Below are positions 3,486 to 11,517 of a DNA stretch of 13,915 bases, piece by piece. The position numbers were made by a program, and so were the translations under genes. The stretch's first letter is position 1, and every line of letters begins with the position of its first letter. Source of the stretch: Candidatus Heimdallarchaeota archaeon (GTDB lineage Archaea > Asgardarchaeota > Heimdallarchaeia > JABLTI01); the NCBI GenBank assembly GCA_019056785.1, contig DXJV01000043.1, positions 1 through 13,915 of the forward strand, read 5' to 3'. The notes below the pieces were generated by a model. It searched no databases and was not told the origin of the DNA. It saw nothing but the letters and a program-made list of their open reading frames with translations.

Positions 3486-3505
3486 GAAAAAATCTTTTAA
3501 AGATT
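3486..3505 (+). promoter_or_regulatory. Putative BRE/TATA promoter of degV, overlapped by a 15-bp inverted repeat
   Basis: GAAAAAATCTTTTAAAGATT: purine-rich BRE then TTTTAAA. AATCTTT-T-AAAGATT (3491-3505) is a perfect 7-bp inverted repeat around one base. Confidence 0.45.
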
Positions 3506-3569
3506 GAAAAATCAAAATAAAAAGAAATCATTGTCGAAGAGCAACTTGCTCACAGGAGATAGAAAAACA

Positions 3570-4454
3570 TTGCCTAAAATAAAAGTGATTACTGATTCTA
3601 CAAGTGACATTCCGGAAGAACTTGTGAAAAAATATGATATTGATGTTGTTCCTCTAAACATTTTCTTTGGAGAAGAGCGATATAAAGATGGGATAAATAT
3701 CACAGCCAAAGAAGTTTATGAACGATTAAAAACCCAGAAGAATCCCTGGCCAAAGACTTCCCAACCATCTGCACGAGAATTTCTGGAATATTACAATCGT
3801 ACCTTTGATCAAGGTTATGAAACAGTCTTTTCAATTCATATCAGCTCCAACCTTAGTGGCACTTTAAATTCTGTTAATTTGGCTAAACAGATGCTCCCTG
3901 ATAAGGACATTATTGCTATTGATAGTATCTCAGTCACTCACCCACTTGGATTACTAGCTTGTGAAGTTGCCAAACTCGTCAAAGAAGACAAGAGCCGTGA
4001 TGAGATTCTAAACATCATTGAAAACCGCTTCAGAAATAATAACCATATTTGTGGTATAGTTGATACCTTGGAGTACTTGCATCGAGGCGGGAGAATTGGT
4101 CGAGCAAAAAAATTGCTTGGGAACTTATTAAATATGAAACCGGTCTTGGAAGTTGCTGATGGCTTAGTCACCAGCTTCGGAAAAACGAAAGGGTTTGAAG
4201 AAGGTTTTAACAATATGGTTCGCATGGCTTCCAAGATCTTCGAGAAATGTTTTACCGAGGAAATTTGGCTTGGTTTTGCCGGTGATAACAAATACACTCA
4301 AAAATATTATAAAGCTATTAAAGAACTACCCAATGCACCAAAGGAGATCCGTGTTGTTGAAATTGGTCCTACTGTTGGTGTTCACCTTGGTCCAGGTGTA
4401 ATGACAATTTCTTGGATAGGCGACTGGAACAACAAATGGTTTTTTGAGAAATAA
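3570..4454 (+). CDS. degV: DegV family (FakB-like) fatty-acid-binding protein
   Basis: Family motifs ITDSTSDI, KTSQPS, ISSNLSGT, LEYLHRGGRIG, LNMKPVL, GVHLGPG. TTG at 3570 (MPKIKVITDS) preferred over 3504: AGGAG at 3554-3558, it matches the usual DegV N-terminus, and 3504 abuts the TATA box. Confidence 0.95.
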   Translation: MPKIKVITDSTSDIPEELVKKYDIDVVPLNIFFGEERYKDGINITAKEVYERLKTQKNPWPKTSQPSAREFLEYYNRTFDQGYETVFSIHISSNLSGTLNSVNLAKQMLPDKDIIAIDSISVTHPLGLLACEVAKLVKEDKSRDEILNIIENRFRNNNHICGIVDTLEYLHRGGRIGRAKKLLGNLLNMKPVLEVADGLVTSFGKTKGFEEGFNNMVRMASKIFEKCFTEEIWLGFAGDNKYTQKYYKAIKELPNAPKEIRVVEIGPTVGVHLGPGVMTISWIGDWNNKWFFEK

Positions 4455-4482: not shown

Positions 4483-6690
4483 TTACTTGATATTCCCGAG
4501 AAAAGTTTGTTCCGCTATTTGACCAATTCCTTCTTTATCCACAGAATTGATCTGTTCCCCATGGTTTTTTGTTAAAACGTTCCACAAGCTTTCTGTGTTT
4601 TTAAGCCGTTGAATTAATTGGTTTAATTTCTGGACTGCTATAAATGATTGCCCTTTATATACATAACAAAAGAGGAGTGGATTTTCAATCTTCAAGAGCA
4701 AAGTGTATTCCTGGTGTTGTATTTTTTCGATTGACCCTCTAGTTGCAAATGTTTGGTGCATAAAAGCATCGATCGCAGTTAAGAACCCTCCAACAAACAT
4801 TTCGTCTATCATTTCTTTGGAGGAGAATTTTTTCGAAAAAACTGTTACTCCGCCTTCATAAACTATTATAAGTAACACCGGTTCTTCTTTCTGAATTTTT
4901 TCAATTTTAATTGTTTGTTTGTCGATCATTTTTACGATTTCTGATTCGAAGTCTTTTTCTGTTTGGTTAAGTGCATGGTCATTTTCCAATGTTGTTGATA
5001 ATGGTTGTTCCGGCAGATTGTTTTTAAGAACTGTAATTGCTCGAGTAAATTTCAATCCAAGTCGTTGTAATCCTGTTTCTTCTGAAAGGTTTTCTCCTTC
5101 TTCAAATAACAATTGGGCTTCTTTTACATTATATTGTAATAAAGCAGCATTTGCTTTTAACCATATATTCTCTACGATTTCCAATTTGGAGTCGATTTCT
5201 TGTGCTCTTTGGAAGTGTTTCGCAATTAATCGATTGATTTCCGGGAACAATTGCTCATTTCTTGCGCTTTGACTTTCTTTTAGCAGGACTTCTACGAGGT
5301 TAAAATAGGCTATTGATTTGAGATGATAATCGACTATTTCACTTTTAACTATTTCAGTCAAAATTTTTCTCGCTTTTGCTAATATCTCTTTATTATTACT
5401 TTTTTTCAGAATTAATGCTGATGCTAATTGGCTTTGGAGAAGAGTTATCTGATTACTTTTTCTATCGATATTTTTTTGGAGTGAATCTAAGTAACTTTTC
5501 GCTTCAGCGATACGGTTTTCTTCTAACGCAAGAATAATTAACCTGAAGAGTGTTTCATTATAATCTTTGTAATCTTTTTGTGCGTCAAGTTCTGTAAAAC
5601 TTTTCATTAACAAGTCTCTACTTGTCTTAAAGTCTCCTTTATGATATGCAAGAATCCCTTTTAAGCGATAGACAACAAATTGCCCCATTTTGTAGTTAGA
5701 ATGATTGAAAATCGTTTCAGCTTTTTCTAGAGTGTTCATTGCTTCAGCTATTTGTCCCTTAATAATTAAGATATTCGTGAGAAGGCACATGGTTAGAGCA
5801 TAGTCAAGAGTAAGGTTCTTTTCTTGAGTCAAACTGAGAGAGCGGTTTAGGAATGAAAATGCTCTGTCGAATTCTCCCAAGCGTAAGTAAATAGTGCTCA
5901 AACTATGTAATGCTTTGACAATTACCTCTTCGTTTGGAATTTCTTCAGCAATAGCTAAACTTTGCAAACAATTCTCAAGAGCCGGTCCATAGTCCCCTTT
6001 CCAGAGATAAATCTTCCCTATTTCATTATAAATATAGGCAATATTAACTTCATCATTTAATTCTTGAAACATTTCAAGGCTTTGTTTGAAAATGATCAAT
6101 GCTCGAACAATATCCCCTAGCCGTAGATACAGCTCAGCAATTTTTGTGTTAGATTCTGCTAATCCGGGTAAATCATTAATTTCTCTTCGAAGCGATTGGC
6201 TTTGTAAATAATTTTCAAGTGAGCTTTTCAATTCTTCTTCTTGTTCAAAGACAAATCCTTTTTCAAAAAGTATCGCTGCTTTTCGGAAATACAGGTCATT
6301 TTTCGGGACATTTAATCCCTTTGCGATGATTTTCTCAGCCATTTTTAAATAGGCCAGCCCTTTTCCCAATTCTCCAAGGCGATTTAAGGCTTTTGCTTTA
6401 TAAAAAAGAGCATCTAATAAGCTCAAGGAATCGCTTATACTTTGAGTGTTATTTAACAATTCCTCTGTAAGTTTTAACATTTCTTGGAATTTTTCTTCAT
6501 GTTCAAAAATTTTGAGTTTTAATAATTTGAGTTCAATTTGTTTTCCTAGTGAGAGTGAAGAATGTTCTCTTTCGAATACCTCAACTTCAGCTAAAGCCTT
6601 TTTAAAATCACCTTTCTTTACTAGCTCATTAATGATTGTTAATTTATCTGGCTTTTGCTCTGGAAACATTCTATAACTCATCACTTTCAA
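4483..6690 (-). CDS. Tetratricopeptide-repeat protein with C-terminal longin-like alpha/beta domain (Asgard-type)
   Basis: 735-aa ORF with ~40-aa helical repeats (e.g. IAYIYNEIGKIYLWKGDYGPALENCLQSLAIAEE), then EEPVLLIIVYEGGVTVFSKKF...FVGGFLTAIDAFM...IEKIQHQEYTLLL...LFCYVYKG. True start may be the ATG at 6681 or 6669. Confidence 0.85.
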   Translation of the reverse strand: MKVMSYRMFPEQKPDKLTIINELVKKGDFKKALAEVEVFEREHSSLSLGKQIELKLLKLKIFEHEEKFQEMLKLTEELLNNTQSISDSLSLLDALFYKAKALNRLGELGKGLAYLKMAEKIIAKGLNVPKNDLYFRKAAILFEKGFVFEQEEELKSSLENYLQSQSLRREINDLPGLAESNTKIAELYLRLGDIVRALIIFKQSLEMFQELNDEVNIAYIYNEIGKIYLWKGDYGPALENCLQSLAIAEEIPNEEVIVKALHSLSTIYLRLGEFDRAFSFLNRSLSLTQEKNLTLDYALTMCLLTNILIIKGQIAEAMNTLEKAETIFNHSNYKMGQFVVYRLKGILAYHKGDFKTSRDLLMKSFTELDAQKDYKDYNETLFRLIILALEENRIAEAKSYLDSLQKNIDRKSNQITLLQSQLASALILKKSNNKEILAKARKILTEIVKSEIVDYHLKSIAYFNLVEVLLKESQSARNEQLFPEINRLIAKHFQRAQEIDSKLEIVENIWLKANAALLQYNVKEAQLLFEEGENLSEETGLQRLGLKFTRAITVLKNNLPEQPLSTTLENDHALNQTEKDFESEIVKMIDKQTIKIEKIQKEEPVLLIIVYEGGVTVFSKKFSSKEMIDEMFVGGFLTAIDAFMHQTFATRGSIEKIQHQEYTLLLKIENPLLFCYVYKGQSFIAVQKLNQLIQRLKNTESLWNVLTKNHGEQINSVDKEGIGQIAEQTFLGNIK

Positions 6691-8801: not shown

Positions 8802-9590
8802 ATGACACAAATTGTCGGTAGAACTTTTGGAATCGATTTCATCTATTTGGATTTAATTTTGGTGAGTATTTGGATTATTTTGCTGTTAGTACGCAAAAGA
8901 TTCAAGGAATTGCTGATCGGCATTTTTGGTTATGTTGTTGTTATGTTTACTGATGCGGTGATCTGGTATACCATTAAAAAGACCAGGCATATTGAGATAG
9001 CCGGCAATGTCATTGGTCCTTATCTTTTCTTGGCGTATTTTTCCTTTACTTACGGAGTCATTATGTTTTCTTTTGCCGTAATGATGTTTAACCGGCAGGT
9101 TTCACCTCTTGAAAAAATTCTCTGGTCGGCCTTTTTGTTTTTAGGTTGGTTGGCGATTGGGCTGATTTCGCAACACATTCATTGGAATGATACTGAAATC
9201 TACATTTATCGTGACATGACTTCCTCCCGATTAGGGCAAATATTAATGGCGATAATTGGTTATGCTCTTATTCTTGCATGGAAAATTATCTCAGAATTCA
9301 CTGATAAATTTCCCTTCAACCTTATGAAGACTGTTCCTTATTGGTATTTCGCTGTGCTTATTATTACGGGCATCTTTATTCACTTCTCTATGGAATCTAC
9401 TCTCTGGATTGCTCAAATCCGCCCTTCTGATTGGGAAGTTCTTCTAACTAATAGTTTACTCGAGTTCAATACTGGCATACCAATTCTTTTCGCTCTCTGG
9501 GTAACAATTAATCAAAAAGACTACAAATACACTCCGGCTGTTGAACCAGCAGAAGTTGATGTTGCACTAGCACCACCCGTCCAACATTAA
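8802..9590 (+). CDS. Uncharacterised integral membrane protein (~7 TM)
   Basis: 262-aa ORF with about seven hydrophobic segments and polar residues in or next to them (D17, D51, H194, E198, E221). No family confidently recognised. Confidence 0.8.
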   Translation: MTQIVGRTFGIDFIYLDLILVSIWIILLLVRKRFKELLIGIFGYVVVMFTDAVIWYTIKKTRHIEIAGNVIGPYLFLAYFSFTYGVIMFSFAVMMFNRQVSPLEKILWSAFLFLGWLAIGLISQHIHWNDTEIYIYRDMTSSRLGQILMAIIGYALILAWKIISEFTDKFPFNLMKTVPYWYFAVLIITGIFIHFSMESTLWIAQIRPSDWEVLLTNSLLEFNTGIPILFALWVTINQKDYKYTPAVEPAEVDVALAPPVQH

Positions 9591-9607
9591 TTTTGTTCAT
9601 CCAGAGA

Positions 9608-9653
9608 TCTTTTTTCATTCTTTCACTCTTTTTTCCTTCTTTTTTATATTTTT
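9608..9653 (+). terminator. Oligo-T terminator region
   Basis: Long T/C tract after the stop at 9590 and before the next TATA box. Confidence 0.5.
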
Positions 9654-9654
9654 A

Positions 9655-9703
9655 CTGAAAAATTATAAAGTAATAAGTGCAACATAGAATTATTAAAAGG
9701 AGA
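9655..9703 (+). promoter_or_regulatory. BRE/TATA promoter and SD site of the plsY-like gene
   Basis: CTGAAAAATTATAAAG at 9655-9670. GGAGA at 9699-9703, 8 nt before ATG 9712. Confidence 0.6.
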
Positions 9704-9711
9704 TAACAATC

Positions 9712-10485
9712 ATGGCTCTTCAAGTTTTGTGGCTTATCTTAGCTCTTCTGGGATCATTCTTAAGTGGTTCAATACCCTTTGCGGTTTTAATTGGGAAAAT
9801 GGCAACAGGCAAAGATCTCCGCAATTATAATGTTGGTAATCCTGGCGGCTTTAATGCTGTAATGACCTATGGTTTGGCAATTGGTTTGTCTGTTATTTTC
9901 ATCGACATTTTGAAAGGCTTTCTCCCTATGATGGCTATTGACTTGATTTTCAAACAAGCTGCTTGGGGTTTTGGCATTGATACTGTTTGGTATAAATTGG
10001 CTGTTATCCTCGGACCGGCCTTTTGTATTCTCGGGCACAATCATTCTCCTTGGTTGAAATTTAAAGGCGGTCGTGGGAGCGCTGTTTTTATTGGTACTCT
10101 TATTTGGGTGAACCCTCTGGTATTGATTTGTTACTTTTTCCCCTTTGGCATTATGATTGGCCTTTTCAAAGTTCCCACTCGAGTTTCTACTGTTCTTTCT
10201 GCAATTTTCTACCTACCAGCAGCCCTTTTCCTTCCCATTGCGCCTCTCTGGTCAAGGCACATGCTGACAACGATGGTATACCCTGCAACCGGGCAGTTCA
10301 TTTACTTACTACCGTTCTTAATTGCCTTAGAGATGTGGCTAGCCCAATTACCACGCCATATACCTAGCCTTATTGCAGCTCTTCGCGGAGAAGAATGGAC
10401 TTTAAAAGTTGGTGAGGGGCAACAGTTCTCAGAAAAACTGGATACAATCAAAGCCAAAGCAACAAAAGAAGAAAAAGAGGAGTAA
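9712..10485 (+). CDS. plsY: PlsY-family acyl-phosphate-dependent acyltransferase, divergent active site
   Basis: GSIPFA, DLR...GNPGGFN (motif 1), DILKG, LGHNHSPWLKFKGGRG (motif 2), RH...GEE (motif 3); multi-TM. Family is secure, substrate is not. Confidence 0.9.
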   Translation: MALQVLWLILALLGSFLSGSIPFAVLIGKMATGKDLRNYNVGNPGGFNAVMTYGLAIGLSVIFIDILKGFLPMMAIDLIFKQAAWGFGIDTVWYKLAVILGPAFCILGHNHSPWLKFKGGRGSAVFIGTLIWVNPLVLICYFFPFGIMIGLFKVPTRVSTVLSAIFYLPAALFLPIAPLWSRHMLTTMVYPATGQFIYLLPFLIALEMWLAQLPRHIPSLIAALRGEEWTLKVGEGQQFSEKLDTIKAKATKEEKEE

Positions 10486-10632
10486 TAATAACTGGAAAAA
10501 TACTTTTTTTATTTTTCCTTTTTTTTATTGCAACAAACTTTCTTACTTGTTTTTTCAAGACCACTTAATCTGGGGGCCACAATTTCTTGGAAAAAAAGAG
10601 AAAAGAAGGAAAGTGCGAAGAGCTATTTCCTC

Positions 10633-11517
10633 TTATATTGCTTTCACTTTCTTTTTAACGAGAAGCATTATTGTGAATGTGGTTATAATTCCTACCCCAA
10701 GATAAATCCATGACAAACCTAATGGTCTGGTATAATTTTCTTCTGCTATTTGAACACTCATGCTGAAAGTTGTGTCTTCTCCTTTATATGTCCCACTGAT
10801 TGTTGTTTGGAGATTATAGCCTTGCAAAGTGTAAGAAGTAACATTGTAATCAAATCGTAATGTATGAATAATTATCAAATCCGTTGATTCGTTACTAATA
10901 ATATACCTGCCCATAACACTTACAAGGAACGAAATTGTTTCTCCTGCATCATACCATTTTGCATAAGAGCTGCCGGTGACATTACTTTCTGCAGTATCGA
11001 AGGAATTGTAGAGGTCTTCCCAATTTGTCGAGTCATTATAATAGTCATAAACGTTATTCCAATCTGTCGAGGGAGGTGCAAAATAGAAATTGTCACTTAA
11101 GCTTACACCAATAGTAGGATCGATAGGATTTACTGTTCCACTGGAGATCCCCATAACAATGAAAGGAAAGAAGGAATAATAGATGAGCCCAAGTGCAAAG
11201 TTAAAGCCGTTAGAAGTCACATCGGTAAGTTTCGCATCACTTGAATCGTAAATAGAGTAAGAGACATCACCACTTGAAATTGAATTCACATGTGCTCTAA
11301 TTTGTGCATTGACCGGTATGGAATGCGTTCCCACTCGAAAGCTGGACGTGTTCCCGCTAGTGGTAGTTCCACCATTAGTATAATTGAAACTTCCTTTCGC
11401 ACGTTTTACATTAAAATAATAGTTATCTCCTGCTTGTAATCCTTGAACAGAAAGTGAAGGGATTACAAGAAGCATAAAAATGACAAGAACAGATAAAACG
11501 GAAAATACTTTTTTCAT
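10633..11517 (-). CDS. Secreted, C-terminally anchored surface glycoprotein (resembles Asgard choice-of-anchor S type proteins)
   Basis: Signal peptide MKKVFSVLSVLVIFMLLVIPSLSVQG. Beta-rich S/T/Y/N body with about 7 N-x-S/T sequons. Ends PLGLSWIYLGVGIITTFTIMLLVKKKVKAI. GGAG SD at 11531-11528. Family resemblance is from recall only. Confidence 0.7.
   Translation of the reverse strand: MKKVFSVLSVLVIFMLLVIPSLSVQGLQAGDNYYFNVKRAKGSFNYTNGGTTTSGNTSSFRVGTHSIPVNAQIRAHVNSISSGDVSYSIYDSSDAKLTDVTSNGFNFALGLIYYSFFPFIVMGISSGTVNPIDPTIGVSLSDNFYFAPPSTDWNNVYDYYNDSTNWEDLYNSFDTAESNVTGSSYAKWYDAGETISFLVSVMGRYIISNESTDLIIIHTLRFDYNVTSYTLQGYNLQTTISGTYKGEDTTFSMSVQIAEENYTRPLGLSWIYLGVGIITTFTIMLLVKKKVKAI

Follow-up and report, generated by a model that had tools for sequence, protein, structure and literature searches.

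What does a PlsY-family acyltransferase do once all four residues that should hold the phosphate of its glycerol-phosphate acceptor have been replaced? This question is raised by a gene on contig DXJV01000043.1 of a Candidatus Heimdallarchaeota archaeon (assembly GCA_019056785.1), which we analyzed as one stretch of 13,915 nucleotides, referred to below as the window (Table 1). The answer that we favor, with a probability of roughly 0.55, is that the gene encodes a functional, neofunctionalized PlsY-type acyltransferase, which would still depend on acyl phosphate but use a changed acceptor. For this protein we infer the acyl-phosphate donor, the change of acceptor and the identity of the acceptor.

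Asgard PlsY homologs have long been cited as a hint of bacterial-type ester lipids in the archaeal ancestors of eukaryotes. Bacterial-type plsY has been noted in metagenome-assembled genomes (MAGs) of Loki-, Thor- and Heimdallarchaeota (Villanueva 2017, via Coleman 2019, PMC6431249; Manoharan 2019, PMC6737245), and the function of the Asgard homologs "remains to be elucidated" (PMC9385802). In their accessible portions, PMC6431249 and PMC6737245 treat these homologs as PlsY, by presence or absence and by trees, and hold no residue-level analysis, paralog radiation or DegV/FakA linkage. In the searchable part of the literature, no residue-level analysis, paralog radiation or fakA-degV-plsY cassette was found described for Asgard archaea; to this the present work adds the cassette, tests of selection and the residue detail of one orthogroup.

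The gene is intact and belongs to the PlsY family, as an earlier note made from the DNA letters had proposed: its frame is open, and the PF02660 (G3P_acyltransf) match agrees with the predicted fold. In Pfam the protein matches profile positions 2-142 of 164 with 106.9 bits (E=1.5e-30), the cut-off being 24.1. On the NCBIfam PlsY equivalog TIGR00023 it reaches 84 bits, under the cut-off of 137.2, and it is likewise far under the cut-off of each remaining PlsY equivalog model there, so that by score it falls outside PlsY sensu stricto. Its sole solved relative is PlsY of Aquifex aeolicus (aaPlsY; E=6e-13 by phmmer, 2.5e-18 by profile). An AlphaFold2 model built from 32 relatives (predicted local distance difference test score, pLDDT, 84.6; predicted template-modeling score 0.82) retrieved PlsY entries only in Foldseek (TM 0.72 by target). 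In VIA-align this model matched 5xj5-5xj8 at Z 19.6-20.1 over 193-197 residues (for 5xj8_A, Z 20.1 and a root-mean-square deviation of 3.0 Å over 193/196 residues), and the next unrelated chain stood at Z 5.8. The protein is thus predicted to have the PlsY fold along its whole length, with seven transmembrane helices.

To see which functional residues survive on this fold, it is instructive to compare it with bacterial PlsY (EC 2.3.1.275; 5XJ5-5XJ9). There, a "phosphate clamp" for glycerol 3-phosphate (G3P) consists of Ser35, Arg45, Lys104 and Asn180, and the 2-OH of G3P is bound by Ser142 and His177 (Li 2017, PMC5700162). The backbone amides 104-107 together with His92 and two helix dipoles make up the "phosphate hole" that takes the phosphate of the acyl phosphate, whose carbonyl is bound by Thr41 and two backbone amides; Asn37 is the probable oxyanion stabilizer (PMC5700162). 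Each clamp residue is 89-95% conserved among 7,288 homologs, and the residual activity of aaPlsY is 4.8% for S35A, 1.1% for R45A, 4.6% for N180A, 4.8% for T41A and 25% for K104R (PMC5700162).

The residue correspondences come from phmmer, HHalign and MAFFT alignments; the 5xj5 PDB chain numbering equals that of the paper plus 1, an offset checked on S35, T41, R45, H92 and K104. Motifs 1 and 2 lie in a phmmer alignment to 5xj5 without gaps, an HHalign alignment of the clade with 25 bacterial PlsY (probability 100%) covers motif 3, T160 and R157, and both are matched by MAFFT alignments of 75 and of 142 sequences, made independently. In the ungapped phmmer alignment, the clamp residues Ser35, Arg45 and Lys104 correspond to V41, M51 and R121, and the carbonyl ligand Thr41 to F47, whereas Asn37, Asn42 and His92 are kept as N43, N48 and H109. 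In the HHalign alignment, the clamp residue Asn180 corresponds to S219 and the motif-3 Arg to A222; His177 and the motif-3 Glu are kept as H216 and E228, and the 2-OH-binding Ser142 is aligned to T160. These are the substitutions that the earlier note had read in motif 1 (Ser to V41, Thr to F47, Arg to M51), motif 2 (Lys to R121) and motif 3 (Asn to S219, Arg to A222, with H216 and E228 kept), the last set agreeing between HHalign and the 75-sequence MAFFT alignment. Its further statement that all four phosphate ligands have changed is borne out, the alignments agreeing at every listed position: none of the four clamp residues (0/4) is identical and only Lys to Arg is conservative, while the canonical S-R-K-N clamp is present in 112 of the 140 best full-length family representatives.

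The extra arginine that the note had singled out, R157, is a clade-specific insertion of one residue, a gap in 135/140 other family representatives, and could contribute to a shifted anion site. Position 160 is Ser or Thr in 121 of 140 family representatives. What the window protein has in common with bacterial PlsY, on the predicted model, is the seven-helix fold and the order of the motifs, together with His92, the GGxG phosphate-hole loop, Asn37, Asn42 and the motif-3 Gly-x-Glu. The differences lie in S35 (V or I in the window orthogroup), R45 (M or L), K104 (R), N180 (S), Thr41 (Phe) and a variable His177, and in three additions: R157, an insertion of about 20 residues before the last helix, and a conserved C-terminal tail of 30 residues. 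In this tail W229 is kept in at least 90% of the rows of a 32-member clade alignment (A1) and is followed by a conserved acidic stretch; the AlphaFold2 model gives residues 229-257 a pLDDT below 50. Judged from the alignments, the donor and chemistry side appears kept except for Thr41, and the acceptor side appears lost.

Is this loss decay, or is it maintained? A search among 5.8 billion proteins returned 167 relatives, of which the close ones carry the name Heimdallarchaeota or Asgard group. Run against 1.84 billion cluster representatives, the clade profile found 15,399 family members at E<=1e-3 but no more than 9 at E<=1e-30. The subfamily is small, rare and under selection. Across the 32 clade members of A1, H109, N43, N48, G119, G120, G122 and K153 are invariant; together with the fold match, this upholds the earlier statement that the scaffold, N43 and the glycine loop persist, and H109 persists too. 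The window gene belongs to an orthogroup of 18 rows, with a support of 99 in the SH-like approximate likelihood ratio test (SH-aLRT). Throughout these 18 rows (18/18), position 47 is Phe, 121 Arg, 157 Arg, 219 Ser and 226-228 GEE; position 41 is Ile in 14 and Val in 4, position 51 Met in 16 and Leu in 2, and position 222 Ala in 17 and Leu in 1. Position 160 is T, S, N or M.

Position 216, by contrast, is variable: His in 11 of the 18 orthologs and Leu in 7, the Leu occurring in two separate subclades. The proposal that the motif-3 His is catalytic is supported neither by this tally nor by the literature, where PlsY catalysis is substrate-assisted and His177 positions the G3P 2-OH, explicitly without being a catalytic base (PMC5700162). 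His177 tolerates no substitution in PlsY (PMC5700162), so the leucines at position 216 argue that the acceptor of this orthogroup is not positioned as G3P is.

The selection estimates point the same way as the fixed residues. For the least saturated ortholog pair, L022-L024, the ratio of nonsynonymous to synonymous divergence (dN/dS, Nei-Gojobori) is 0.068 (dN 0.052, dS 0.77); other pairs give 0.06-0.23 with synonymous sites mostly saturated (proportion of synonymous differences >0.63), so that the usable estimates are those of L022-L024 and of the metagenome variants only. L023 was left out of the calculation because of a frameshift. On contigs from four metagenome studies (marine sediment and hydrothermal vents) the gene is intact, with 12 synonymous and 7 nonsynonymous variants, 0 of them at key sites; an in-frame 3-nt deletion variant on these contigs lies at 10466, in the C-terminal tail. 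Nine of 11 same-family genomes hold a single ortholog each, none turned up in those other families of the class that the search covered, and the Heimdall contigs that bear orthologs reach 447 kb. The clamp changes are fixed under purifying selection and are not decay, and they define a conserved clade, with dN/dS of about 0.07-0.2 across the 18-row orthogroup. Because the changes are fixed in this way, an altered acceptor site is the better reading, as the earlier note had argued.

Two imperfect copies were seen. The ortholog L023:7001-7761 (MAG 12R2_15) has a change of frame near residue 35, and the copy at G005:C34:5479-6222 carries a TAA within the domain match; these defects are either assembly errors or occasional pseudogenization.

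The window gene is not alone in its genome. The source is a MAG of 2.87 Mb in 102 contigs, 82.5% complete, with 4% estimated contamination and archaeal 16S fragments, and it holds 8 PF02660 paralogs. Two of these, C57 and C42, keep the clamp Ser, Arg and Lys. The other six, including the window gene, form an Asgard-only superclade in the tree (SH-aLRT 99), apart from bacterial PlsY and from the cassette PlsY described below, and each subclade retains at most 2 of the 4 clamp residues. The inserted Arg157 is a common hallmark of this superclade, with Arg also in five other paralogs of the genome. The most diverged PlsY paralog, C98, reads GGNG in place of GGKG, and a gene for an APH-family phosphotransferase (G000:C98:135070-136119; L012:8071-9120) starts 10 nt after it. 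In a same-family genome, G011:C288:5452-6588 has two PF02660 matches in one 511-aa frame, possibly a tandem-fused PlsY-like protein.

A link to fatty-acyl supply is suggested by the genomic company of these paralogs. In bacteria, FakB binds a fatty acid, FakA phosphorylates it, and the acyl phosphate enters the membrane for PlsY (PMC10146087). The source genome holds 10 DegV (FakB-family) genes, and DegV lies directly beside diverged PlsY paralogs at G000:C92:5371-7068 and G000:C93:9041-10770, convergent and 30-85 nt apart; at C93 a short-chain dehydrogenase gene stands just upstream of the DegV gene. The window has a DegV gene of its own, the closest relative in the genome of the cassette DegV (35% identity), whose linkage to the PlsY paralog is loose; in eight ortholog loci DegV is not adjacent. 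Over 41 relatives the counts of PlsY-like and DegV genes co-vary, descriptively, since kin are not independent: this genus has 4-13 PlsY-like with 6-24 DegV genes per genome, family f2 has 2-3 with 9-15, and genus g4 has 0-2 with 0-1, seven of its genomes having neither family and six one copy of each.

The cassette itself, fakA (Dak2 plus FakA-like_M)-degV-plsY, is present in 8/10 same-genus genomes; in the eighth, G002, the fakA-like gene is on a different contig from the degV-plsY pair. Its FakA-like protein has 330 aa, with Dak2 and FakA-like_M and without the FakA C-terminal domain. Its PlsY (L094:4778-5515) is the top-scoring PlsY of its genome (160 bits over the full PF02660 model), has S, R, K, N and H unchanged, and clusters with bacterial PlsY in the tree; it shares lineage, Pfam family and presumably the acyl-phosphate pool with the window gene, which lies in the separate Asgard-only superclade at an identity of about 29% or less (about 29% being the figure for sister paralogs). 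Because the cassette PlsY keeps the full clamp, a canonical glycerol-phosphate enzyme is already present in the lineage.

This finding undercuts one further explanation offered in the earlier note, that the pocket was rewritten for the archaeal enantiomer glycerol 1-phosphate (G1P). Besides the canonical-clamp PlsY of the genus, canonical PlsY of both B. subtilis and E. coli accepts G1P as well as G3P (Rieche 2026, PMC13400652), and therefore use of the archaeal enantiomer needs no new pocket. A search for G1P dehydrogenase gave weak Fe-ADH_2 matches only (33 bits).

How, then, might the window protein work? The retained donor machinery would comprise His109 and the GGRG loop as the phosphate hole and Asn43 as the oxyanion stabilizer; since it is kept, use of acyl phosphate should persist, with the acyl group taken from acyl phosphate through the substrate-assisted mechanism of PlsY. 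The acyl phosphate would come from a fatty-acid kinase of the FakA/FakB(DegV) type, the DegV paralogs presenting fatty acids. Because the genus has FakA, DegV and PlsY, we read the paralog radiation as one of acyl-phosphate-dependent acyltransferases that may have diverged in acceptor specificity. In the window protein and its orthologs V/I41, M51 and S219, all hydrophobic or small, take the place of the G3P clamp together with R121 and R157, so that the acceptor presumably cannot be held as G3P is in bacterial PlsY. With the former phosphate site apparently more hydrophobic (I/V41, F47, M51) and Arg gained or kept at 121 and 157, the putative pocket would fit an acceptor that is amphiphilic and perhaps still anionic. 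Amphiphilic alcohols would be the likeliest acceptors; a lyso-lipid, be it 1-acyl- or 1-O-prenyl-glycerol phosphate, is one example.

A lyso-lipid is attractive, speculatively, because neither this genome nor any of five relatives, of which two are single-contig, yielded a PlsC (PF01553). If the acceptor were a lyso-phospholipid, PlsC might be a functional analogue, differing in its unrelated fold, its HX4D motif and its thioester donor. The most specific form of this idea, in which a FakA/DegV acyl-phosphate system feeds a PlsY radiation of differing acceptor pockets and the window paralog, by acylating 1-acyl- or 1-O-geranylgeranyl-glycerol phosphate as a lyso-lipid, replaces the missing PlsC and makes diacyl or hybrid ether/ester phospholipids, seems to us quite unlikely as a whole; if true, the archaea closest to eukaryotes would have such phospholipids. 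Whichever acceptor is used, Asgard "PlsY" is not one thing: there is a canonical-clamp cassette PlsY, and there is a selected radiation of paralogs with a rewritten glycerol-phosphate site. Tables of "PlsY" presence and absence overstate what is known of Asgard lipid synthesis, and a clonable set of enzymes, with residues 41, 47, 51, 121, 157 and 219, offers a handle on fatty-acid esterification and its acceptor.

Several observations weigh against an acyl-phosphate-dependent enzyme with a changed acceptor. The Thr41 carbonyl ligand is Phe here, and donor binding may differ too. The pocket positions of R157, R121 and the hydrophobic replacements are deduced from sequence alignments, and a phosphate, including that of a glycerol-phosphate acceptor, may still find its ligands in R121, R157 and K153. 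Supply of the donor is a further difficulty. PF02504 (PlsX) and PF02734 (FakA) have no match in this genome, an incomplete MAG in which absence is not proven, and PlsX was not found in the five relatives either. The cassette and its flanks were not found in the window's assembly, being either absent or unassembled, nor in G007 and G008, which have an ortholog. The pathway expected around a PlsY, a PlsX or FakA donor partner plus PlsC, was thus not found at the 82.5% completeness of the MAG. Finally, the synteny of the orthogroup loci revealed no consistent functional partner.

Could the protein still be a glycerol-phosphate acyltransferase, for G1P, G3P or both, with a clamp rebuilt from R121, R157 and perhaps K153? 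The constancy of these three residues (R121 and R157 in 18/18 orthologs, K153 throughout A1), the alignment of T160 with the 2-OH ligand Ser142, the H216 kept in the window protein and the 25% activity that K104R leaves in aaPlsY are all compatible with this, and in a genome without the canonical cassette PlsY some paralog might fill its role. Against it, three of the four clamp residues have turned non-polar or small and are fixed, and the residue matching the substitution-intolerant His177 is dispensable in 7/18 orthologs. There is also no obvious pressure for a new site when canonical PlsY takes both enantiomers, paralogs C57 and C42 of the same genome keep S, R and K, and no PlsC was found to consume the lysophosphatidic acid that such an enzyme would make. 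We therefore consider a rebuilt clamp unlikely.

It is similarly doubtful that acyl transfer has been lost altogether, leaving a PlsY fold with an anion or lipid-phosphate hole that now hydrolyzes acyl phosphate or lipid phosphate, binds or transports lipids, or acts as a subunit for regulation or scaffolding. Such a role would accommodate the Phe in 18/18 orthologs at the carbonyl ligand, given that T41A leaves 4.8% activity in aaPlsY, as well as the change of all acceptor-positioning residues, the lack of an acyl-phosphate source found in the genome, and a conserved yet disordered tail that suggests a protein partner. However, N43, H109 and GGxG are invariant across the Asgard radiation; a transferase needs them, and they go beyond the needs of a mere binder. 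Two of the three hydrogen bonds to the carbonyl in PlsY come from backbone amides, and the co-expansion and adjacency with DegV point to fatty-acyl traffic. A functionless gene, be it a PlsY copy in decay or diverged by chance, or bacterial contamination of the bin, would account for the L023 frameshift and the G005 stop and could be sought in the 4% estimated contamination, but it is extremely improbable: the frame is intact here and in four independent metagenome studies, dN/dS is about 0.07-0.2 with variants biased to synonymous ones, orthologs occur in 9/11 same-family genomes and on long Heimdall contigs, and the G+C content of the gene region (0.37-0.40) matches that of the genome (0.386). 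A functional acyltransferase with a changed acceptor is the reading that we retain.

Table 1. Coordinates of the PlsY-family gene, its motifs and associated features (window positions unless a contig or locus is named).
Feature	Position	Strand	Remarks
PlsY-family paralog CDS (P0001)	9712..10485	+	open frame, 257 aa, stop codon included
Motif 1 (D35-T52)	9814..9867	+	N43, N48 kept; V41, F47, M51 at replaced sites
GH...FKGGRG (G108-G122)	10033..10077	+	H109 equals aaH92; clamp Lys is R121
K153-T160 segment	10168..10191	+	inserted R157; T160 aligned to Ser142 (HHalign)
Motif 3 (R215-E228)	10354..10395	+	H216 equals aaH177; G226-E228 kept (HHalign)
Clade-specific C-terminal extension (W229 onward)	10396..10482	+	sequence conserved, low model confidence
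Candidate own promoter and ribosome-binding region	9642..9702	+	read directly from sequence
DegV/FakB-family fatty-acid-binding protein gene	3504..4454	+	PF02645 E=3.9e-79, intact, 5.3 kb upstream of PlsY paralog
Multi-pass membrane protein, 262 aa	8802-9590	+	directly upstream of PlsY paralog
"Choice-of-anchor S" family protein	10633-11517	-	NF041737 E=3e-48
fakA-degV-plsY cassette, seven genomes	L094:4778-7560 (G010:C6), G005:C69, G003:C192, G004:C408, G006:C106, G001:C88, G009:C47	one strand	

Upstream of the gene, A/T-rich TATA-like boxes lie at 9642-9669, 43-70 nt before the ATG, and a GGAG at 9699-9702 is 9 nt 5' of it; T-rich tracts mark the end of the preceding gene, just before the candidate promoter. 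This arrangement fits a PlsY paralog with its own transcription unit. Sigma-70 promoter and terminator scans of the region stayed at background level, with sigma-70 sites no commoner than in shuffled sequence, and an Rfam search of the window gave no match. For window positions 9000-11000 no RNA data set containing the sequence was listed, a result neutral as to expression.

Genes that recur near the orthologs encode a choice-of-anchor S protein, a PFL-like glycyl-radical enzyme together with its activase, and an EXPERA/EBP-family protein; a weak APH-like gene recurs as well. All of them look unrelated. The choice-of-anchor S gene is convergent with the PlsY paralog and lies nearby in 4/8 ortholog loci (L020, L022, L024, L025); its product has a signal-like segment at the N terminus and, at the C terminus, a hydrophobic segment with lysines after it. 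The EXPERA/EBP family (emopamil-binding-protein-like membrane proteins) is unusual for archaea. In two Heimdall MAGs such a gene (L020:5492-6079, L021:6288-6881) precedes the PlsY ortholog and shares its strand, as its direct neighbor in L021 and with the weak APH-like kinase gene in between in L020.

The 262-aa membrane protein of the window has no Pfam or NCBIfam match; a 72%-identical ortholog is found in L021, 3.3 kb upstream of the PlsY ortholog. Large tetratricopeptide-repeat (TPR) proteins of about 730 aa are repeatedly encoded no more than a few kb from PlsY paralogs or orthologs (window 4483-6690, minus strand; G000:C94:29598-31781; L026:1590-3770), the window protein being 35% identical to that of L026. 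Elsewhere, at G000:C70:15477-19649 on the minus strand, a 3612-aa frame with a ketoacyl-synthase match (PF00109, E=1.3e-65) fits a type I fatty-acid or polyketide synthase, a possible internal source of fatty acids.

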